Virus record (IMG/VR): IMGVR_UViG_3300031669_000021
Coordinates: 1 to 64,000 of that record
Source: a virus
DNA length: 64,000 bases
Strand: one strand, 5' to 3'
The notes below the pieces were generated by a model that saw only the letters and a list, made by a program, of their open reading frames with translations, made no database searches and was not told the DNA's origin. The position numbers were made by a program, and so were the translations under genes. Shown piece by piece: positions 4,992 to 58,701 of this stretch (positions within the stretch are counted from its first letter, which is position 1; each line of letters opens with the position of its first letter).

Positions 4992-5352
4992 ATTTTTGCA
5001 GTTTATACAATGGTGTGGTAGGAAAATTTATGGAGGCTTAGTATCAGCGATTCTTAGCATCCCGAAAGGGATAGCCACTGTATTTCATGTGCTTAAACAC
5101 GAAGTAAGACACGCAACATTCCTGTTCAGTTTACTCTGGGCAATGTTTACCGCGTTTCTTTTGCTCGTGTCACTGGGAATTTCTGCCAGCATCGCACTTT
5201 GGTTCTCAATTAAGCATACGCCGTTCGTGACAATTACTGAGGTAGTGATTAGCATAAGCATCGTTTTATATGCAACACTGGTTGTCGGTATGATCTACGA
5301 TATGTTTGAAGAAGAGCAAGAACAGCTAATGGATATTTTGAAGAAAAAATAA
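4984..5352 (+). CDS. membrane protein approx 122 aa
   Basis: ATG 4984 overlapping previous stop; two to three TM segments. Confidence 0.45.
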   Translation: MLKFLQFIQWCGRKIYGGLVSAILSIPKGIATVFHVLKHEVRHATFLFSLLWAMFTAFLLLVSLGISASIALWFSIKHTPFVTITEVVISISIVLYATLVVGMIYDMFEEEQEQLMDILKKK

Positions 5353-5353
5353 T

Positions 5354-5650
5354 ATGTATTTCTATATCTTTAGTCGACCTGAAAAGATTGTGTTTCTGCC
5401 AAAGGCGCCAAGCATTGGCGCGCAGATAACGCAGGTTGCAACAGCAATTATCTCGTATCACCCAAAAGGCGAGCAGTTCAGGATAATAAAGAATCGTTAC
5501 GGAACGCCCATCAACGAAATAGCAGAAAAATACCTCGGAATACGCTTGTTTAATGACGGATTCTTCATTTCTGACCAAGAAAAGATGCTTTTTATCTTGA
5601 AATACAGTGGCTTACAACACGAGAAAGATCTTGACATCCCTATCATATGA
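5354..5650 (+). CDS. hypothetical protein 98 aa
   Basis: track ORF; its 3' end carries the next promoter. Confidence 0.45.
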   Translation: MYFYIFSRPEKIVFLPKAPSIGAQITQVATAIISYHPKGEQFRIIKNRYGTPINEIAEKYLGIRLFNDGFFISDQEKMLFILKYSGLQHEKDLDIPII

Positions 5651-19087: not shown

Positions 19088-19366
19088 ATGGAAAATCACA
19101 AGAGATATTTTATCCACAGGACCAACAGTGATGGTTCTCTTGAATATCGATATCAGACCGGAGAGTGGCGCGATGATTTTAAGGACGCGCAGTTATGGGC
19201 CAGCAAAGAATTTGCAATTAAGAAAGCAAAAGAGTTGAAGAAAAGCGACCTTAACTGGCAGAAAGATTCAGAATTCTGCGGACCATACACTGGGCCTAAA
19301 TTGACCGGCATGTATGTCGGTGAAGTAACAGTAACATATAACGATCAAGATTGGGAAGAAGTATGA
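19088..19366 (+). CDS. hypothetical protein 92 aa
   Basis: track ORF; stop overlaps pnk start. Confidence 0.5.
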   Translation: MENHKRYFIHRTNSDGSLEYRYQTGEWRDDFKDAQLWASKEFAIKKAKELKKSDLNWQKDSEFCGPYTGPKLTGMYVGEVTVTYNDQDWEEV

Positions 19367-20265
19367 ACAAAGCAATAATCACAGTAGGAATTTCAGCATC
19401 AGGCAAGTCAACCTTTGCGGATGAGTGGCTTAACGCAGGGCCTAATCGCGTCCGCATCGAGCGAGATCTTGTGCGTAAGGCACTGGTCGAAGCCGACGGG
19501 AAAGAATGGTCTTGGGACAAATGGAACTGGAAAAGAGAAAGCGAAGTTACTGCCATCATCAATCGCAGAATCGAAGCATGTGCAGGATCACATGACATCA
19601 TCCTGTCAGATACCAATCTGCACACTGGTCGTCGTAATACTCTTGTCAAGTGGCTTGAGTCTCTTGGCTACGAAGTCGAAGTGAAAATGTTTCCCGTATC
19701 AATCGAGGAAGCATGGAAGCGTGATGCAAAACGCGCAAATGGCGTAGGACATTCTGTCATTGCAAAACAATACGAGCAAAATCTCGAAAACAGCACACGA
19801 CGTCGTTATGTAGCTGACCCAAATAAACCAGCCTGCATCTTGGTTGATATCGACGGAACACTTGCTCATATGAACGGTAAGCGCGGTGCATTTGAATGGG
19901 AGAAGGTTGGTCTTGATGTCGTCGACGAGGCAGTTCGAGCTATTGTCAATCGCTTTGCATTCCGTGATGATGGTAGCACAGAAACAGACACCGTAGTTAT
20001 TGCACTCTCTGGGCGTGACGGTATTTGCGAGCCAGAAACACGGCAGTGGTTAAAGGACAACGATGTTGGATTCCACAAACTTTTTATGCGAGCACCAAAC
20101 GATATGCGAAAAGATACAATCGTCAAGGAAGAAATCTTCTGGCGAGATATTGCAGACAACTACAGTGTTCTGTTCGCTATCGACGACCGCCCAAGTGTTG
20201 CAAGAATGTGGCGTGAATTGGGAGTAAAAGTATTTCAAGTTGGCAATCCTCACATTGAATTTTAA
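19363..20265 (+). CDS. pseT: polynucleotide 5'-kinase / 3'-phosphatase (T4 Pnkp)
   Basis: N-terminal P-loop GISASGKST and ISDTNL; C-terminal HAD phosphatase VDIDGTLAHMNGKRG, RKDTIVKEEIFW, AIDDRPSV..MWRELGV; co-linear with T4 PseT. Confidence 0.85.
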   Translation: MNKAIITVGISASGKSTFADEWLNAGPNRVRIERDLVRKALVEADGKEWSWDKWNWKRESEVTAIINRRIEACAGSHDIILSDTNLHTGRRNTLVKWLESLGYEVEVKMFPVSIEEAWKRDAKRANGVGHSVIAKQYEQNLENSTRRRYVADPNKPACILVDIDGTLAHMNGKRGAFEWEKVGLDVVDEAVRAIVNRFAFRDDGSTETDTVVIALSGRDGICEPETRQWLKDNDVGFHKLFMRAPNDMRKDTIVKEEIFWRDIADNYSVLFAIDDRPSVARMWRELGVKVFQVGNPHIEF

Positions 20266-20272
20266 GGATATC

Positions 20273-20728
20273 ATGAGCAAAATAGCAGAAATAAAAACAG
20301 CACAACTGACAGCAAGAAAGGCACGTGATTCGATCACTGCTACATTGCTAACAACTATTATCGGCGAAGCAGAAATGGTCGGCAAGTCCGCCGGTAATCG
20401 CGAATCAACTGACGAAGAAGTTCTGGTCGTGCTGAAAAAGTTCGAGAAGAACATGCTGGAAAATCTACGCATTTACAATGCTCGAAGCATTGAGTATCAC
20501 AATGCAGCAGCGGCAGTCGAAACAGAACTTGAGATTGTCCGCAGGTTCTTGCCAGAGAAATTGACCAACTTGCAGGTCGAGAAAGATATTGGCACAGTTA
20601 TGCAAAAGTTGAATCTGGCCAAAGAACAACAGTCTCTTGGGATTATTGTCAAAGAGCTGAGAGCAAAATATGGCGATCAGTTTGATGGACAGCAAGTCTC
20701 GGGAACGTTTAAGCAAATGTTAGTTTAA
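20273..20728 (+). CDS. YqeY/GatB-C-terminal-domain-like protein
   Basis: Pattern similarity to YqeY (..SDEE..VLKKFEK..LPEKLT..); weak. Confidence 0.4.
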   Translation: MSKIAEIKTAQLTARKARDSITATLLTTIIGEAEMVGKSAGNRESTDEEVLVVLKKFEKNMLENLRIYNARSIEYHNAAAAVETELEIVRRFLPEKLTNLQVEKDIGTVMQKLNLAKEQQSLGIIVKELRAKYGDQFDGQQVSGTFKQMLV

Positions 20729-21140: not shown

Positions 21141-21938
21141 ATGAATAAGAAATTAGTTGTGTTGGTAGTATTGGCATTTACCGTGTTGGCATCAGGTTGC
21201 CAGCGTATTGAAACAGGCGAAGTAGGATTGCGGCGCGGCTTTGACAAGCAGATCGAAAAAGTCGAACTTGAGCCCGGCTCGTTCAATCAAGAAATCGTCG
21301 GCGACGTGCTGGTATTCCCAGTCAAGCAGATCGCACTGAACGAAGACAAATTGCAGCCAATGACAGCGGACCACTCGGTCTTGCGCGAACTGGACTTTAC
21401 GGCAATTTACAATATCAACCCAGCGGCTGTTGGCGAACTATACACGACTCGTTCACATGCGCTCAATGCAATTGATAGCAACGGCGATACATTGCTGATG
21501 TATAACTACATGCGAACAATTGCCAACTCGGCGGCATTCAAAGCAGTTAACAAAGTCAATGCGCTTGATGTACCAAACTCGCGTTCACAAATTGAACACG
21601 ACACACTCATGATTATGCGTCAGGCACTTGTTGACGACGGCTTGTCCAATAGCATTACTATTGATCAGGTACAAATCAAGAATGTTACACTGAATCAGTC
21701 GATCATTGACTCAGCACAAAGCGTTATTAATGCTCAAAACGCGCTGAAGGCAAAACAAATCGAAGTCGAGATCGCAAGCAAAGAAGCAGAACGTTTGGCA
21801 ATGTTGAGCAAGAATACTGCAAATATTAGTTACATGCACGCCAAAGCACTGTCGGATATCGCAGAAGGTGTTCGAGAAGGTAAAGTACGTTCCATCATTA
21901 TTCCGATGGACTTCAAAGGAATTATCAACGCAAACTAA
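21141..21938 (+). CDS. SPFH/band-7-like lipoprotein
   Basis: Lipobox LASGC signal; GEVGLRRGFDK..LEPG..VFPV SPFH-like N-terminus; C-terminal coiled coil. Confidence 0.45.
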   Translation: MNKKLVVLVVLAFTVLASGCQRIETGEVGLRRGFDKQIEKVELEPGSFNQEIVGDVLVFPVKQIALNEDKLQPMTADHSVLRELDFTAIYNINPAAVGELYTTRSHALNAIDSNGDTLLMYNYMRTIANSAAFKAVNKVNALDVPNSRSQIEHDTLMIMRQALVDDGLSNSITIDQVQIKNVTLNQSIIDSAQSVINAQNALKAKQIEVEIASKEAERLAMLSKNTANISYMHAKALSDIAEGVREGKVRSIIIPMDFKGIINAN

Positions 21939-22943: not shown

Positions 22944-23120
22944 ATGAATTACACAATTAAAGTATTTAACGTAGACTACGAAGAAGTACAAAAATGGTGC
23001 TCTGATCAATTGGGAGAGCGTGACGTTATTTGGGATGTTCGTGGTCTTTCTTTTATGCCATGGTTTACATTTAAAAACGAGTCTGACGCAGTGATTTTTT
23101 CTTTGCGGTGGGTCAAATGA
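22944..23120 (+). CDS. paralog array member A4, 58 aa (..WCSDQLG..FKNESDAVIFSLRWVK)
   Basis: ATG 22944 to TGA 23118-23120; below track cutoff. Confidence 0.5.
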   Translation: MNYTIKVFNVDYEEVQKWCSDQLGERDVIWDVRGLSFMPWFTFKNESDAVIFSLRWVK

Positions 23121-23524
23121 CATTTATAGAAAAAATTAAAGATAAATGGCTTACCTGGAGAACAGGGTATAATAAAAGTGAACGAGAATATCGAGCCTGG
23201 CGGGATCAGAATATTGCGTCAAATGCAAGCGACGTGACAAATTACTTTCACGGTTATAAGTATGTGATTGCATTAGATTTCAATAAAGTATGCACTGATT
23301 TTGAACCAATGTATGGTAAAATAGAGTCGACAGAATTTTTAAGTTATATGTATCCGCATCGTCCTTTGGGTAAGAACTGTTCATATGGTTGGTTCCGCGG
23401 ATACTGGGATAAATGGGATGGCCGATTCCATTTGAATGATATTGACGACGGAGGGACAGACCACATGTTCATTGCAACTAATAGCGGCAAGGATGCTATA
23501 ATGATAGCATTGAAGTGGTCATGA
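23117..23524 (+). CDS. paralog array member A5 (..NSGKDAIMIALKWS)
   Basis: ATG 23117 overlapping A4 stop (ATGA). Confidence 0.5.
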   Translation: MTFIEKIKDKWLTWRTGYNKSEREYRAWRDQNIASNASDVTNYFHGYKYVIALDFNKVCTDFEPMYGKIESTEFLSYMYPHRPLGKNCSYGWFRGYWDKWDGRFHLNDIDDGGTDHMFIATNSGKDAIMIALKWS

Positions 23525-23820
23525 ATATAGTTAATATAGAGTCTGATAAGATCCTAAACTTAGTCAGTGCCTGTGCGCCGCTAAGAGTAATCGTTACAGT
23601 TCATAGTATCGACGATAGATATTATATTCACTTTGATGGCCGATCAACATATAAAGATGCAAAAAAGTGGCATGTTCTGTGGGAAGGATTTGAAAAATAC
23701 GTATCAGGCATGTTACGCCATTATAATATAAAAGTAAAAAACATCGATATCAAAGACGAATATACTGCAGACTGTTTTATAGGAACACTATTTGATATAC
23801 TGAGCACAAATAATGAATGA
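23521..23820 (+). CDS. array-embedded gene A6 lacking the C-terminal module
   Basis: ATG 23521 overlaps A5 stop; ends ..LFDILSTNNE. Confidence 0.45.
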   Translation: MNIVNIESDKILNLVSACAPLRVIVTVHSIDDRYYIHFDGRSTYKDAKKWHVLWEGFEKYVSGMLRHYNIKVKNIDIKDEYTADCFIGTLFDILSTNNE

Positions 23821-24121
23821 ATTTATAAATTATGACTTTGAGTCAATGTATCCAAACGTCATACACATGTCGACGAAAGGTAAAATTCACATTAGAGAGG
23901 GTTATCGCGGCGAGTGGGTTATAAATCTTCCAGCCAGCAAAAATGATGAGATACTTGCGTGGTGCTACGAGGTATTTGGGGAGCCGGGAAGAAGTAGGAA
24001 ATATAATTGGCGCGTGAGTTGGAGCGATCAAGCAAACGGATATAGCAGTGGCATAGGAGGTCCAAGAATTTTTCTTCGGAGCGAACGAGATGTCACCTTA
24101 TTTAGGTTGAAGTGGGAATAG
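23813..24121 (+). CDS. paralog array member A7 (..AWCYEVFGEPG..ERDVTLFRLKWE)
   Basis: track ORF; ATGAATGA overlap. Confidence 0.55.
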   Translation: MNEFINYDFESMYPNVIHMSTKGKIHIREGYRGEWVINLPASKNDEILAWCYEVFGEPGRSRKYNWRVSWSDQANGYSSGIGGPRIFLRSERDVTLFRLKWE

Positions 24122-24411
24122 TGGATTTTAAGATAATAAAAACAAGAGTAAATATTCCTATGAGACAAATTCAATGGCCTCGGGCAGCAACGGAAAACGG
24201 CATTGTTATGCAACAATATAAAATATTAGAACACGAAAAACAACCAAACGGAGAAGTTTGGTATTCTGTTCGAGTCAATGATGATATTTTACTGTGGCTA
24301 AACGAAACGTTTGAATATGAAACTGACTTTAGAGTAGTTCATCATCTTAAAGGAGTATGGGTTGGTATGAACGAAAAAACACTTGCTCTTCTCCAATTGA
24401 AGTGGTCATAA
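24112..24411 (+). CDS. paralog array member A8 (GEVWYSV..EKTLALLQLKWS)
   Basis: track ORF with GTG start; alternative in-frame ATG 24160. Confidence 0.5.
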   Translation: MGIVDFKIIKTRVNIPMRQIQWPRAATENGIVMQQYKILEHEKQPNGEVWYSVRVNDDILLWLNETFEYETDFRVVHHLKGVWVGMNEKTLALLQLKWS

Positions 24412-24412
24412 T

Positions 24413-24811
24413 ATGTCAGACGAAATTGATAAGAAAATGGAAATGACCAACGCAGTTCTTGAAAAACATCGAGAAGATCTAAAGAAGATGTTTGCTGATA
24501 ACAAAACTAACATACCAGAAGAAAATACGAAAATACTCCTCCCAATGATAAGAAACGTAATGCCATCAATTATCGCCTCCAGTATCGTTAATGTCCAGCC
24601 TATGACCTGGCCAGGAGAAAAATTTGCTATTGGGAAAGAAGAAGAAATCAACGGAGAAGTTTGGTATAACGTAACTTGCGACGACGAAATTTGGCAGTGG
24701 GTCATTGATACTATTGATGACAGTCAATACCAAGACGGAACAAACGAATTTCAGAACAGATTAACACTATCGCCAGAGGCGATGATGATGTTTAAGTTAA
24801 AGTGGTCATAG
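24413..24811 (+). CDS. paralog array member A9 (GEVWYNV..PEAMMMFKLKWS)
   Basis: track ORF; ATG 2 nt after previous stop. Confidence 0.55.
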   Translation: MSDEIDKKMEMTNAVLEKHREDLKKMFADNKTNIPEENTKILLPMIRNVMPSIIASSIVNVQPMTWPGEKFAIGKEEEINGEVWYNVTCDDEIWQWVIDTIDDSQYQDGTNEFQNRLTLSPEAMMMFKLKWS

Positions 24812-24833: not shown

Positions 24834-24861
24834 TTGACTTTTCGGTAGAAGAGCGTATAAT
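24834..24861 (+). promoter_or_regulatory. sigma70-type early promoter, cassette copy
   Basis: TTGACT 24834-24839, 16 nt, TATAAT 24856-24861, TTTCGG spacer. Confidence 0.6.
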
Positions 24862-24888
24862 AGTTACATTACTTAAAGAGAGACTCAG

Positions 24889-25296
24889 ATGATCGAATAT
24901 GAAGATTTGTCACCTCTTATCCGCGAAAGTCTTGTGCAGTCAAGCGTTCAGCTTATGCGAGATGTCACAGAGGCTTGGGGAAAAGATAAGGGGTTTGAGC
25001 TGTGGGAGAAAATCTCCGAGACACTTGGAGACGGCGTCAAGGGTGATATTTTCTTTGGCATGATTAGCGGGAAACACCTCGAAGTCAGGGTTCGAATCAG
25101 ATCTGCAAGAAATGTTGACAGCCGCGTAAACATGATCAAGGCAGTGAGAACTGCTACGGGAATGGGTCTAAAAGATGCAAAAGATTTTTGTGATGCTGTT
25201 TGGGCCGGAAAACCAGATTCTGTTGTATGCGAAACTTCCGAGGCCGCGAGAACGCTTCTCGCAACGTTGCGAGAACTTGGGTGCGACGCAGTATGA
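24889..25296 (+). CDS. protein with ribosomal L7/L12 C-terminal-domain-like module
   Basis: VNMIKAVRTATGMGLKDAKDFCDAV..SEAARTLLATLRELGCDAV aligns to bL12 CTD [43 protein letters not shown]. Confidence 0.6.
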   Translation: MIEYEDLSPLIRESLVQSSVQLMRDVTEAWGKDKGFELWEKISETLGDGVKGDIFFGMISGKHLEVRVRIRSARNVDSRVNMIKAVRTATGMGLKDAKDFCDAVWAGKPDSVVCETSEAARTLLATLRELGCDAV

Positions 25297-25350
25297 TTAC
25301 GATAAAAGACATAATCGCGATGGAACGCCGCTATAAGATCGGAGATAAAA

Positions 25351-26538
25351 ATGTATAATTTTGAAGTACAAAAATTACATGCAGAATGCAATACTCAAGA
25401 GTCGTTTCTTGAAAATCTGAAACTAATTGGCGTAGATGCGCGAGACTATCCAGAACACAAAATGTGGTTGCTGGACTACAACATGATTGAGTGTGAGAAA
25501 AATCATCCAGTCGTGCTTGAGTGTCGTGGTCTGGTAATGGGATATGACGGTTCAATCATCCGTAAGGGCTTCGATCGTTTCTTCAATTTGGGAGAGAACG
25601 GCGTAGATACATTTGACTTCGAGAATTCTGTTGTCTTTGAAAAGGCAGACGGTTCTTTGATGTTTGTTTACTGGTGCCCTCCAACAAATCAGTGGGAAAT
25701 AGGAACTCGCGGAACAGCATTTGCTGAAGGACCAAACGAGTGGCATGGCACATTCCGTGGTTTCATGCTTAAAGCAATGGGACGCACTGAGAAAGAATTT
25801 CAGCTGTCTGCAGGTCGAAATCTGCATAAGGGAACAACATATCTGTTTGAGGCAGTTGGACCTGACAACCGAATTGTCACTGCATATGAAGAGAATCACC
25901 TGGTATTCTTATCCTCGTTCTTTAAGGGAGTCGAGGAAGATGCAGGCGCATTGCGGGTTATGACAGATTTCTTTGTGAATGACAGCGGATGGAACGTTCG
26001 TGAAATTCGCAAGTATTCCTTCAAGACGCAAGAAGATTGCATGATTGCATTGCACGAGCTTACTGGTCTGCAAGAGGGATATGTGGCGTACAATAAGTTG
26101 ACAGGTGATCGAGTAAAAATAAAGTCGCCTGTCTACTTAGCAGCACATCGTCTGCGTGGTAACGGTCTGACATTGAACTCTATTTGTGAACTCGTTGTAA
26201 TGAACGAGGTGGACGAGTATTTGGCTACTTTTCCAGAGGATGCACACAAGTTTGATTCTGCTAAGGAAATGTTGGCAATAATGATACGGGAGTTAATTAC
26301 AAACTATTGCTCACACCAGTTTATGGAAACACAAAAAGAGTTTGCACTTGCGGTGAAGGACTTACCATTGTCGGGAGTTATGTTTCAGGCTCGAAAGAAG
26401 AACACAGATGTCGTGCATGAATTCAATCAGGTTGCAACTAACAAGAAGGCTGATTGGCTGAAAGAACGTTTGCTCCAAACTGATCAGTATCGAGCAGTTT
26501 TGATATCTGAGGGTCGACTCGGAGCTCAGTGTCTTTAA
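25351..26538 (+). CDS. rnlA: RNA ligase 1 (T4 RnlA-like)
   Basis: Motif I FEKADGSLMF (KxDGSL) as in T4 Rnl1; approx 395 aa; tRNA-repair partner of Pnkp. Confidence 0.65.
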   Translation: MYNFEVQKLHAECNTQESFLENLKLIGVDARDYPEHKMWLLDYNMIECEKNHPVVLECRGLVMGYDGSIIRKGFDRFFNLGENGVDTFDFENSVVFEKADGSLMFVYWCPPTNQWEIGTRGTAFAEGPNEWHGTFRGFMLKAMGRTEKEFQLSAGRNLHKGTTYLFEAVGPDNRIVTAYEENHLVFLSSFFKGVEEDAGALRVMTDFFVNDSGWNVREIRKYSFKTQEDCMIALHELTGLQEGYVAYNKLTGDRVKIKSPVYLAAHRLRGNGLTLNSICELVVMNEVDEYLATFPEDAHKFDSAKEMLAIMIRELITNYCSHQFMETQKEFALAVKDLPLSGVMFQARKKNTDVVHEFNQVATNKKADWLKERLLQTDQYRAVLISEGRLGAQCL

Positions 26539-27082: not shown

Positions 27083-27254
27083 ATATGAGAACTATTGAAG
27101 ACATTAAAAAAAGATATCGAGATCGTGACTGAAAAAGCATCTTCGTTAGGGATGTTCGACTCTGTCTTCGATTATAGAATGGAAGAGCTTAATGAGCAAA
27201 TGCAAGACCTGCTCGACGAGTTAGATGATGCATGGGTTCATCGAAAGTAATAAG

Positions 27255-27593
27255 ATGATGATTTACACAAACCAGACACCTAAAAAGACACGCAAACAAA
27301 AGGCAAAAGAAGAAGCTGCCTGGCTTGCACAGTGTCAGCGTGATGGTGTGATGCCCAACGGACATAAGTTCGAGGCGATCAAGCCATTCGCTCCTTCATC
27401 TATTCGAGATGGTGCTGATGCATTTAAGAAGTGCGGATCACTTAAAACAAACGAGAGTTATTGCTCCAAGCCGCCCGATAAGGTTTATACGGGAACAGCA
27501 ATGATTGGTATTGCGACGATGCACAAGTCGAACATGGTGCCGGTGTTCAATACCGAGAGCGCAAAAGATATTTCAAAGATGCGGAGAGGATAA
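27255..27593 (+). CDS. basic protein approx 113 aa
   Basis: ATG 27255 just after upstream mini-ORF stop; track offered 27225. Confidence 0.4.
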   Translation: MMIYTNQTPKKTRKQKAKEEAAWLAQCQRDGVMPNGHKFEAIKPFAPSSIRDGADAFKKCGSLKTNESYCSKPPDKVYTGTAMIGIATMHKSNMVPVFNTESAKDISKMRRG

Positions 27594-54047: not shown

Positions 54048-56348
54048 ATGATACAGTCCAATCCAGAAATTGATATTATCGTTAACAATGCAACCGTAAA
54101 TGCAAAACAGCTTCATCATGAATATGTGACTCTGGATCATTTGGCATTGTCTCTCGTAACATATCAGCCATTTTATCAACTGCTAAGTGATTATGGCATT
54201 GCAGTCAATGAACTTGTAGCAGAACTAGTTGCTTATATCAATAGTCAAACTTCACTAGTAAGTAAAAAAGCAGAATACGATGCTCCTCGCCGAACACATG
54301 CTCTTGAACGAGTATTTAATCGTGCCTTCACACAAGTGTTGTTTAGTGGCAGAACAAACATGCAGGTCATTGATGTGTTTCTTAGCATCATCGCCGAAGA
54401 TAAAAGCACCGCTGTTTATTTCTACAACAAATACGGCCTTGATCGTCAAAGCCTGCTAACATATTACCAAAAAAACTATAACGAGAAGAAAGGGACTAAG
54501 TCGGCCATGTCACAAAAAGCAGATTCAATTCTTGAAGAGTATTGCACTGATCTAAATGCAAAAGCAACAGCTGGCAAAATCGATCCCGTCATTGGTCGAG
54601 AAATAGAACTGGAAGAAATATCTGAGGTTCTGGCCAAGAGAAACAAAAGCAATGTGCTCTTGGTTGGCGACCCAGGTGTTGGTAAAACAGCAATTGCGGA
54701 AGGACTTGCATTGCACATCGTCAATGGTCTGGTGCCGGAATATTTGAAGGACTACACCGTTTATAACCTTGATATTGGCTCCTTGTTGGCTGGTAGCAAA
54801 TATCGCGGCGAGTTTGAAGAAAAGCTTAAAGATGTTTTGAAGGCTCTTGACCTTAAAGGAAAAACAATCCTGTTCATCGACGAAGCGCACCAAATGCGTG
54901 GTGCTGGTCAAGGAAGCGGATCGAGCGTTGACTTCGCAAACATGATCAAGCCAGCATTGAGCAAAGGTAACATCAAAGTTATCGCAAGTACAACCTGGGA
55001 AGAATATACTCAATCATTTGAAAAGGATCGTGCGCTGATGCGTCGTTTCTATCGCATGACAGTCACTGAGCCTACTCCAGAAGTGGCAAAGGACATCTTA
55101 CGTGGTTTGAAAACGCATTTTGAAACGTTCCACAAAGGAACAATCGACGAAACAGCAATTGAAGCCGCGGTTGATTTAAGCGTTCGTTATCAAACAGACA
55201 AAAAACTTCCAGACAAAGCAATCGACCTAATTGACTCAGCGTGTGCGAGATTGCGTATTAAGAATGAGCCATTCGTTCTTAGTCGTCGTAACATCATTGA
55301 CGCAATCAGTAAGTTTACCAAAATCCCAGCAGATCAGATTGGATCAGAGCATGTTACTTCCTCATTAGAAGGACTTGAGGATAATATCCGCGTACATTTG
55401 TACGGTCAGGACAAAGCAATCGACGAAGTAATTGAGAAGATTTATGTTGCTCGCGCTGGTCTTAAGGCGATCAACAAACCAATCGGCAGCTTCTTGTTTA
55501 TGGGTCCAACAGGATCCGGCAAAACAGAACTTGCAAAATTATTGTCAACTAACTTGAATATGAAGTTATTGCGTTATGACATGGGCGAATATCAAGAAAA
55601 GCACAGCGTGGCTAAGTTTATTGGGGCGCCGCCTGGATATGTTGGCTATGACGACAGCAACATGGGTGGCGGATTGTTGATTAGTGAGATTGAAAAGAAT
55701 CCTAATGCAATTATCTTGTTGGATGAAATTGAAAAAGCTCACCCAGATGTTACAAATATTCTGCTTTCATTGATGGATGAAGGTGTGGTTACTTCGAGCA
55801 ACGGCAAAAAGGTTGATGCAAGAAATACAATCATAATCATGACATCGAACCTCGGCGCAGCAGAAAACGATAAGAACTCAATTGGTTTTGGTCGTGACCA
55901 CAAGCGCAGCGGCGAAGACGACAAAGCAGTTAAAGAATTCTTTAAACCAGAATTCCGAAATCGTCTTGATGGCATTTGCAAATTTAACAGCCTTGAGCAT
56001 GATAGTATTGTGAAGGTCGTACACAAGTTTGTCGGCGAGCTGAATGAATTATTAAGCGACAAGCATCTTAAGGTTCAACTAACTGATGCAGCACTTGAGT
56101 ACCTGGTATCAACGGGTTTTGATAGCAAGATGGGTGCTCGTCCAATGGCTCGCAAGATTAATAGCTTCATCAAGGTTCCGTTGAGTAAGAAGATATTGTT
56201 CACGTCGATCCCTCTTGGTTCTACTATTACAGTGGATGAAGTTAACGGAGAAGCAGAGTTCACTGTTGTGCCCCCAGAATTACCCCTAATAGGAAATACA
56301 GCACCGCTGGTGGATGAGAATGGCTATATCAATGTCCCAACAGAATAA
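54048..56348 (+). CDS. ClpA/ClpB-family AAA+ unfoldase, two nucleotide-binding domains
   Basis: NBD1 GDPGVGKTAIAEGLA / ILFIDEAH; NBD2 GPTGSGKTELAKLL / ILLDEIEKAHPDV; sensor GARP; 766 aa. Confidence 0.85.
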   Translation: MIQSNPEIDIIVNNATVNAKQLHHEYVTLDHLALSLVTYQPFYQLLSDYGIAVNELVAELVAYINSQTSLVSKKAEYDAPRRTHALERVFNRAFTQVLFSGRTNMQVIDVFLSIIAEDKSTAVYFYNKYGLDRQSLLTYYQKNYNEKKGTKSAMSQKADSILEEYCTDLNAKATAGKIDPVIGREIELEEISEVLAKRNKSNVLLVGDPGVGKTAIAEGLALHIVNGLVPEYLKDYTVYNLDIGSLLAGSKYRGEFEEKLKDVLKALDLKGKTILFIDEAHQMRGAGQGSGSSVDFANMIKPALSKGNIKVIASTTWEEYTQSFEKDRALMRRFYRMTVTEPTPEVAKDILRGLKTHFETFHKGTIDETAIEAAVDLSVRYQTDKKLPDKAIDLIDSACARLRIKNEPFVLSRRNIIDAISKFTKIPADQIGSEHVTSSLEGLEDNIRVHLYGQDKAIDEVIEKIYVARAGLKAINKPIGSFLFMGPTGSGKTELAKLLSTNLNMKLLRYDMGEYQEKHSVAKFIGAPPGYVGYDDSNMGGGLLISEIEKNPNAIILLDEIEKAHPDVTNILLSLMDEGVVTSSNGKKVDARNTIIIMTSNLGAAENDKNSIGFGRDHKRSGEDDKAVKEFFKPEFRNRLDGICKFNSLEHDSIVKVVHKFVGELNELLSDKHLKVQLTDAALEYLVSTGFDSKMGARPMARKINSFIKVPLSKKILFTSIPLGSTITVDEVNGEAEFTVVPPELPLIGNTAPLVDENGYINVPTE

Positions 56349-58583: not shown

Positions 58584-58612
58584 TTGACAAGAGGGTCATT
58601 TGAGTGTATAGT
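58584..58612 (+). promoter_or_regulatory. sigma70 promoter driving the tRNA
   Basis: CCCTTGACA 58584-58589, 17 nt, TG-TATAGT 58605-58612; tRNA 5' end 12 nt downstream. Confidence 0.6.
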
Positions 58613-58623
58613 ATATACATAAT

Positions 58624-58701
58624 GCGATTGTAGCTTAGTTTGGCCAAAAGCAGCGGCTTCTAACCCCGTGATCGTCGGTTCGAATCCGACCAAGCGCACC
58701 A
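58624..58701 (+). tRNA. tRNA, anticodon loop TTCTAAC giving anticodon CUA (amber-suppressor type); amino-acid identity undetermined
   Basis: Acceptor GCGATTG/CAAGCGC (one A-G mismatch), D-arm GCTT..AAGC, T-arm GTCGG-TTCGAAT-CCGAC, 4-nt variable loop, discriminator A, encoded CCA; U33 and A37 flank CTA; anticodon stem has one C-C mismatch. Confidence 0.55.

Follow-up and report, generated by a model that had tools for sequence, protein, structure and literature searches.

A two-domain phage protein family with a homolog of the bL12 factor-binding domain

Proteins with a bL12 domain (Ribosomal_L12, PF00542) have been reported from viruses by Mizuno et al. (2019, PMC6375957), and Al-Shayeb et al. 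(2020, PMC7162821) noted them in huge phages. In the published proteins, the domain either stands alone, in about 100 amino acids (aa), as in N4-like roseophages and Ralstonia phage RSB3, or lies at variable positions in proteins of 418-724 aa, the homologs of which often lack it. Here, we analysed a viral DNA stretch of 64,000 nucleotides, positions 1 to 64,000 of the IMG/VR record IMGVR_UViG_3300031669_000021 (the window), and a gene on it whose 135-aa product is almost certainly a phage protein with a bL12 C-terminal domain (CTD) and a member of a family with a two-domain architecture.

Like the published viral bL12 proteins, those of this family are encoded by phage genes and have a CTD that is about 30-40% identical to cellular bL12. 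They also share with them the conservation of factor-interaction residues, purifying selection and an origin in uncultivated phages of many samples. Unlike the published proteins, members of the family have the domain permanently paired with one three-helix domain of 63 residues, in a protein of about 130 aa. As phage bL12-domain proteins have been published (PMC6375957, PMC7162821), this kind of protein is already known. The obligate pairing with a three-helix domain, the missing hinge, the basic CTD, the occurrence in large uncultivated phages and the early promoter were not found described in the literature searched. The gene and the parts of its product are as follows.

24889..25296, + strand: coding sequence of the 135-aa two-domain protein, stop codon included (ORF listing; ATG start, TGA stop)
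24834..24861, + strand: predicted sigma-70-type promoter, TTGACT, 16-nt spacer, TATAAT, in the 77-nt gap 5' of the gene
24875..24883, + strand: putative ribosome-binding site read from the sequence, a Shine-Dalgarno-like purine-rich stretch AAAGAGAGA with the ATG 5-6 nt downstream
24889..25077, + strand: N-terminal family-specific three-helix domain, aa 1-63 (helices 9-30, 32-46 and 48-60)
25069..25089, + strand: short interdomain linker, aa 61-67, where bL12 has its hinge (predicted local distance difference test score, pLDDT, drops to about 80)
25078..25293, + strand: homolog of the bL12 CTD, aa 64-135 (beta 66-72, alpha 79-90, alpha 94-105, beta 110-114, alpha 117-130, beta 133-134)
25123..25203, + strand: helices matching bL12 alpha-4 and alpha-5, aa 79-105 (RVNMIKAVRTATGMGLKDAKDFCDAVW), which in bL12 form the surface that binds translational GTPases (alignment with E. 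coli bL12, family column frequencies)

A captured bL12 domain in a family of phage proteins

A preliminary description of the window, made from its letters alone, had placed a 135-aa open reading frame (ORF) at 24889-25296 on the + strand, quoted a peptide from it and proposed that its C-terminal part resembles the bL12 CTD. The ORF and the peptide are correct, and the resemblance was upheld. The profile search against PF00542 that had been suggested gave a significant match over aa 77-132 (E = 1.7e-8, 35.1 bits, gathering cut-off 25.9). Among PDB sequences searched with phmmer, bL12 chains from E. coli (bL12 CTD, 1ctf), T. maritima and others came out on top (best E about 2.4e-5). Profile comparison of the family with bL12 by hhalign gave P = 7e-11 with five sequences. 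A deep profile of the family CTD matched a bL12 CTD profile, which was based on 80 rplL genes taken from diverse genomes (81 aligned sequences), with P = 2.5e-20. The AlphaFold2 model of the window protein, computed from a 135-sequence alignment, has a mean pLDDT of 92.1, and the predicted topology of its CTD, beta-alpha-alpha-beta-alpha-beta, is that of the bL12 CTD. Each domain is well defined on its own; their mutual orientation is undefined in the model, as the predicted template-modelling score is only 0.58. The preliminary description had spoken of a protein mimicking bL12. The likeness to the factor-binding domain stands, the mimicry does not: by these comparisons, the CTD is a captured and diverged bL12 domain, related by homology rather than a convergent mimic.

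The alpha/beta CTD of bacterial bL12 (L7/L12, rplL), with its conserved helices 4 and 5, is present in the family, and these helices carry the most conserved part of the domain. V66, I69, K70, R73, G79, L80, E82 and K84 of E. coli bL12 are reportedly implicated in binding IF2, EF-Tu, EF-G and RF3 (Helgstrand 2007, as cited in PMC3299993; Diaconu 2005). Aligned residue by residue, E. coli K65, V66, I69, K70, R73, G79, L80, E82 and K84 correspond to R79, V80, I83, K84, R87, G93, L94, D96 and K98 of the window protein. Across the family, the factor-binding positions have V/I at a frequency of 0.95, I at 0.88, K at 0.84, R at 0.98, G at 0.83, L at 0.98, E/D at 0.93 and K at 0.91. Column entropies are lowest in the three helices of the N-terminal domain (1.5-2.1 bits) and in CTD helices alpha-4 and alpha-5 (1.9-2.0 bits), and higher in the variable segments, which are the strands, the loop between beta-1 and alpha-4, and helix alpha-6 (2.9-3.7 bits).

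Comparing the window gene with its 93%-identical homolog, the ratio of non-synonymous to synonymous polymorphism (pN/pS) is 0.21, which indicates that the gene is under purifying selection. The N-terminal domain accounts for 2 non-synonymous and 11 synonymous differences, and the CTD takes 8.5 of the 10.5 non-synonymous ones. The two domains also differ in charge. Whereas the CTD of bL12 is roughly neutral (median isoelectric point, pI, of 6.2, net charge 0), that of the family is basic (median pI 9.4, net +4). The N-terminal domain is acidic (pI about 4.4-4.6), and the overall pI is 5.9, against 4.8 in bL12. Family members thus have a charge dipole, with an acidic domain (pI 4.4) beside the basic bL12-like one.

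Only four relatives, from metagenomes and with 93, 82, 51 and 46% identity, turned up in a word-indexed search of 5.8 billion proteins. Among these four, conservation is higher over the N-terminal 60 residues than over the bL12-like part. Using HMMER with a profile of aa 1-64, we identified 260 proteins (E ≤ 1e-3; 94 at E ≤ 1e-10) among 1.84 billion cluster representatives; the clusters of the family, formed at 50% identity, number at least 260. With few exceptions, matches to the N-terminal domain are 125-140 aa long. The CTD is present in 141 of the 152 genuine matches, the remainder being truncated or chimeric, and 123 of 135 full-length members reach PF00542 (best E = 4e-25). Two long proteins among the matches, P0010 (1407 aa) and P0145 (777 aa), were rejected as repeat-driven false positives; such matches stem from WD40 repeats and from a pentapeptide-repeat protein with the repeat 'YGKDY..ELWEGL'. 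The window protein, which seeded the family profile, has the features that define the family: a length of about 125-140 aa and an N-terminal three-helix domain with the motif YGxExGMxLW...KGxIFFAMLTG, to which the bL12 CTD is directly joined.

Relatives were found on 162 viral contigs in IMG/VR. The 80 contigs retrieved are up to 374 kb long, many of them over 100 kb, and the family also occurs in a PA5oct-related jumbo phage, whereas the cultivated phages reported to encode bL12 have genomes below 80 kb. In 185,579 species-representative genomes, the matches listed included no full-length member and only ordinary rplL genes, aligned over the CTD alone; unlike rplL, the family gene lies outside any rplJL operon. 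Four queries against 50,697 GenBank phage records found only one distant relative, in Sinorhizobium phage Phosso. Two family members used as tblastn queries had no match in cultured phages, and no near-identical DNA was found in GenBank phages. The cluster members that we looked up are all metagenomic and are unnamed or called 'hypothetical protein'. BFVD holds one two-domain match, automatically labelled 'Ribosomal protein L7/L12, C-terminal [uncultured Caudovirales phage]'. Judging by the 162 IMG/VR contigs and by the best genome matches listed, none of which was a member, the family is restricted to phages.

The relative in Phosso, a jumbo phage of 469 kb, is a 173-aa protein annotated only as hypothetical (XYS97666.1). 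It is 33% identical over aa 19-104, which span the N-terminal domain and the start of the CTD, and matches PF00542 with E = 2e-7. Its N-terminus is longer and its CTD has an insertion; it would be the one experimentally tractable member of the family.

N-terminal domain, linker and promoter

The N-terminal domain is predicted with confidence as a three-helix bundle, with one long helix and two more, and carries the family motif ITExYGxExGMxLWxxIxxxLxPDxKGxIFFAMLTG. No Pfam family and no PHROG covers it, as the PHROGs matched by the family (26927, 23470, 35727 and 5819) align to the CTD part only; it is an undescribed domain family found only in phages. The preliminary description had set the N-terminal 75 residues apart as unlike the bL12 N-terminal domain (NTD). 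This unlikeness holds, while the boundary shifts: the bL12-like domain starts at about residue 64 (beta-1, aa 66-72), so the family-specific part is about 63 residues long.

None of 135 family members matches PF16320, the bL12 NTD, at E ≤ 1. When the N-terminal domain was compared with an 81-sequence bL12 NTD profile, hhalign gave P = 0.0033 over 16 columns. This equals the score of a negative control, the family CTD against the bL12 NTD and hinge (P = 0.0032), and the signal is therefore not meaningful. The idea of a diverged bL12 NTD had been considered on the basis of three bL12 sequences, with P = 0.084 and then 0.0077 once a deep family alignment was used, and was dropped when the score with the 81-sequence profile proved equal to that of the control. 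Aligned with bL12, the deep full-length family profile is collinear with nearly the whole protein, and family helix 1 comes to lie on bL12 alpha-2 and its 'FG'. In contrast to bacterial bL12, the family lacks the NTD hairpin that serves dimerisation and uL10 binding. The linker differs as well, with a median of 6 residues in the family, 38% of them A/G/P/E/V, against a median of 24 residues and 83% A/G/P/E/V in the Ala/Gly/Pro-rich hinge of bL12.

The preliminary description had also assigned the gene a promoter of its own, and this found support. The site at 24834-24861 matches 11 of 12 consensus positions and is the best one between 20 and 28.5 kb. In the related contigs L002 and L003, the 77-nt intergenic region that holds it is 100% identical, whereas the flanking coding DNA has diverged. 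The + strand of the window has 14 sites that match at least 11 of 12 positions of the sigma-70 consensus and the - strand has none, so the promoter is very probably real. Eleven of these 14 sites lie within the first 31 kb, a distribution consistent with a long early region of small gene cassettes that would each have a host-type promoter. With such a promoter of its own, the bL12-like gene is probably expressed early and by the host RNA polymerase.

Two features of the immediate surroundings bear on annotation. An ORF of 147 aa on the opposite strand (24948-25391, -) overlaps nearly all of the gene, which is the shorter of the two. No homology supports this antisense ORF, an annotation artefact that gene picking by longest ORF first prefers over the true gene. 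The gene directly 5' ends in a TAG stop codon that is followed by an in-frame TAA.

How the protein may act

Ribosomal bL12 is attached solely through its NTD dimer on uL10, and the flexibility of its hinge is required (PMC3299993). Ribosomes with a shortened bL12 hinge act like L12-depleted ones (PMC4592705), and the missing hinge of the family thus argues against a normal role in the stalk. Since the factor-binding face is kept, and the elements for stalk assembly and mobility, namely the NTD hairpin and the hinge, are absent, we favour off-stalk binding of translational GTPases, to which we give a probability of roughly 40%. The CTD would engage one or more host translational GTPases away from the stalk. 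The N-terminal domain, which is predicted to be folded, is strongly conserved and is almost always paired with the CTD, would supply a second, phage-specific interaction, either self-association or binding of a partner. The protein could then serve as an adaptor, a multivalent decoy or a GTPase modulator that redirects or titrates factors.

A more elaborate version, which we put forward tentatively and consider rather doubtful in its entirety, is that of an early host-takeover factor of large phages that captures translational GTPases from the ribosomal stalk or competes with it. Here, the acidic N-terminal domain would oligomerise or dock on a phage partner. EF-G, EF-Tu or IF2 might then be sequestered by the resulting multivalent 'pseudo-stalk', activated futilely or passed on to phage-directed complexes.

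Several points weigh against off-stalk GTPase binding. The isolated bL12 CTD is reported to bind factors weakly, as seen by nuclear magnetic resonance (Helgstrand 2007), and with such weak interactions a monomeric decoy would need a high copy number or avidity. Across 85 neighbourhoods, no gene is consistently adjacent to the family gene as a conserved partner. The basic CTD of the family, as opposed to the roughly neutral one of bL12, may have shifted interaction properties, possibly towards RNA. Lastly, a phage bL12-domain protein of another architecture was found in 70S fractions through a single peptide (PMC6375957), so that phage bL12-domain proteins could still associate with ribosomes.

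Incorporation into the stalk or the ribosome is the general model proposed for viral ribosomal proteins (PMC6375957). For this family, it would mean that the N-terminal domain binds uL10 or another site, or pairs with host bL12, and that the altered factor-recruiting head biases translation towards the phage. We regard this as unlikely. The case for it is one of analogy with the proteins of Mizuno et al., who detected the bL12-domain protein of Salmonella phage FSL SP-076 in purified 70S ribosomes by mass spectrometry and point to the ready exchange of bL12 on ribosomes (PMC6375957). The collinear alignment with almost full-length bL12 would fit it too, but the N-terminal domain taken alone scores no better against the bL12 NTD than the control, and no member matches PF16320. 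Moreover, the model lacks the alpha-1/alpha-2 hairpin that builds the four-helix dimer on uL10 (PMC3299993), the flexible hinge is absent although shortened hinges inactivate bL12 (PMC4592705), and in the published case the tagged viral protein failed to co-purify with ribosomes (PMC6375957).

The basic charge of the CTD is also compatible with a bL12/ClpS-type fold that was exapted for a partner outside translation, such as a ClpS-like adaptor for phage Clp machinery or a binder of RNA or another protein. A double-AAA+ protein of the ClpA/ClpB type, with a Clp_N domain, is encoded at 54048-56348 of the window, and in 11 of 74 loci a bona fide ClpP is found no farther than 8 kb from the family gene (e.g., L018 1551-2141). 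Most neighbourhoods, however, are without Clp genes, and conservation in the CTD falls precisely on the bL12 factor-binding motif, which makes this explanation quite improbable. Its specific form, an adaptor like ClpS (the N-degron adaptor of ClpAP), was rejected. There is no sequence relationship (hhalign P = 0.72), and the loop at the position of the ClpS N-degron pocket (aa 73-78) is the most variable part of the family, with a mean entropy of 3.7 bits. ClpS (PF02617) is absent among the first 25 of the 49 Pfam families listed for members. That the domain is a decaying remnant or a chance resemblance without function is hardly credible. The concentration of non-synonymous differences in the CTD might hint at decay, but E-values of 1e-8 to 1e-20, constant length and architecture in at least 260 diverged clusters, the low pN/pS, the confident structure model and the dedicated, conserved promoter speak otherwise, and these conservation data effectively refute it. 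The probability left over goes to mechanisms outside the favoured off-stalk binding and these three alternatives.

Genomic surroundings and significance

The genes of the window are all on the + strand. Those referred to here are the following.

19351-20262, + strand: PNKP (kinase and HAD phosphatase)
20240-20725, + strand: YqeY/GatB-like protein (PHROG 'tRNA amidotransferase')
21141-21938, + strand: SPFH protein
23108-24811, + strand: array of small paralogs, just 5' of the bL12-like gene
25351-26538, + strand: T4 Rnl1-type RNA ligase, 3' of the bL12-like gene
54048-56348, + strand: ClpA/ClpB-type double-AAA+ protein of 766 aa with a Clp_N domain

Farther off in the window are an ATP-dependent DNA ligase, a clamp loader and an Mtd-type tail-fibre N-terminus. 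The T4-type clamp loader shows 58% identity with its counterpart in the Pseudomonas jumbo phage PA5oct group, and 48% with the one in Phosso. By these sequence matches, the window phage resembles PA5oct-group jumbo phages, and its replication and tail genes make the viral origin bona fide. Together with the PNKP and Rnl1 genes, they bear out the earlier assignment of the bL12-like protein to a phage. PNKP, the YqeY/GatB-like protein and the Rnl1-type RNA ligase form a set around the gene in the style of tRNA repair.

The last member of the paralog array (24413-24811, +, 132 aa) consists of the C-terminal ...EVWY...LKWS module and an N-terminal extension. Residues ~39-67 of the extension match the extreme N-terminus of the T4-type major capsid protein gp23 (PF07068, 24.8 bits with a cut-off of 24.4; phrog_138, E = 1.9e-7), which suggests a piece resembling a capsid propeptide on an early protein. 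Elsewhere in the window, ARAGORN reported a 78-nt tRNA with a CUA anticodon as tRNA-Pyl (58624-58701, +). With this anticodon, it would read the amber stop codon. A candidate promoter, TTGACA-17-TATAGT, lies directly 5' of it at 58584-58612. Among the stop codons of the 79 long + strand ORFs of the window, TAG is the rarest (5, against 54 TAA and 20 TGA).

To compare neighbourhoods, 2,402 ORFs from 84 loci were clustered. Recurrent neighbours of the family gene include a metallophosphatase, a dCMP deaminase, a nucleotidase-like protein, a DNA ligase, ClpP and small ORFs without assigned function. Proteins of phrog_27048, which are basic, about 125-140 aa long and have the C-terminal motif YTG..GI.TMHKSN.VP.F....A.DI.KMRRG, are encoded in the window (27225-27593, +) and on L039 (6839-7252). 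In 19 of 85 loci, one of them the window, their genes are found no more than 8 kb from the bL12-like gene, many of these loci being near-duplicates. They are usually located 170-750 bp upstream, in the window 1.9 kb downstream. The phrog_27048 protein could be a functional partner or could merely reflect shared synteny. Contig L001 (79 kb), which carries the 46%-identical member, also has a gene for an IF1-like protein (PF01176, eIF-1a), some 4 kb downstream at 5340-5552, and encodes PhoH. With the IF1-like gene, a phage of this group has a further gene related to translation.

Ribosomal-protein domains of phages have been catalogued since 2019. The family described here provides a clean test case, as it is small, has two domains and a high-confidence model, and keeps the factor face intact while the parts for stalk assembly are missing. 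It also offers a predicted early promoter and, with Phosso, one cultured relative. Should off-ribosome GTPase binding be true, it would reveal a way in which jumbo phages interfere with the recruitment of factors and would provide a natural tool to probe the contacts between bL12 and its factors. A protein that instead bound the ribosome without a bL12 NTD would represent a new mode of attachment. If the pseudo-stalk reading were true, phages would have a new mode of translation control, and a viral bL12 domain would have its first mechanistic role.
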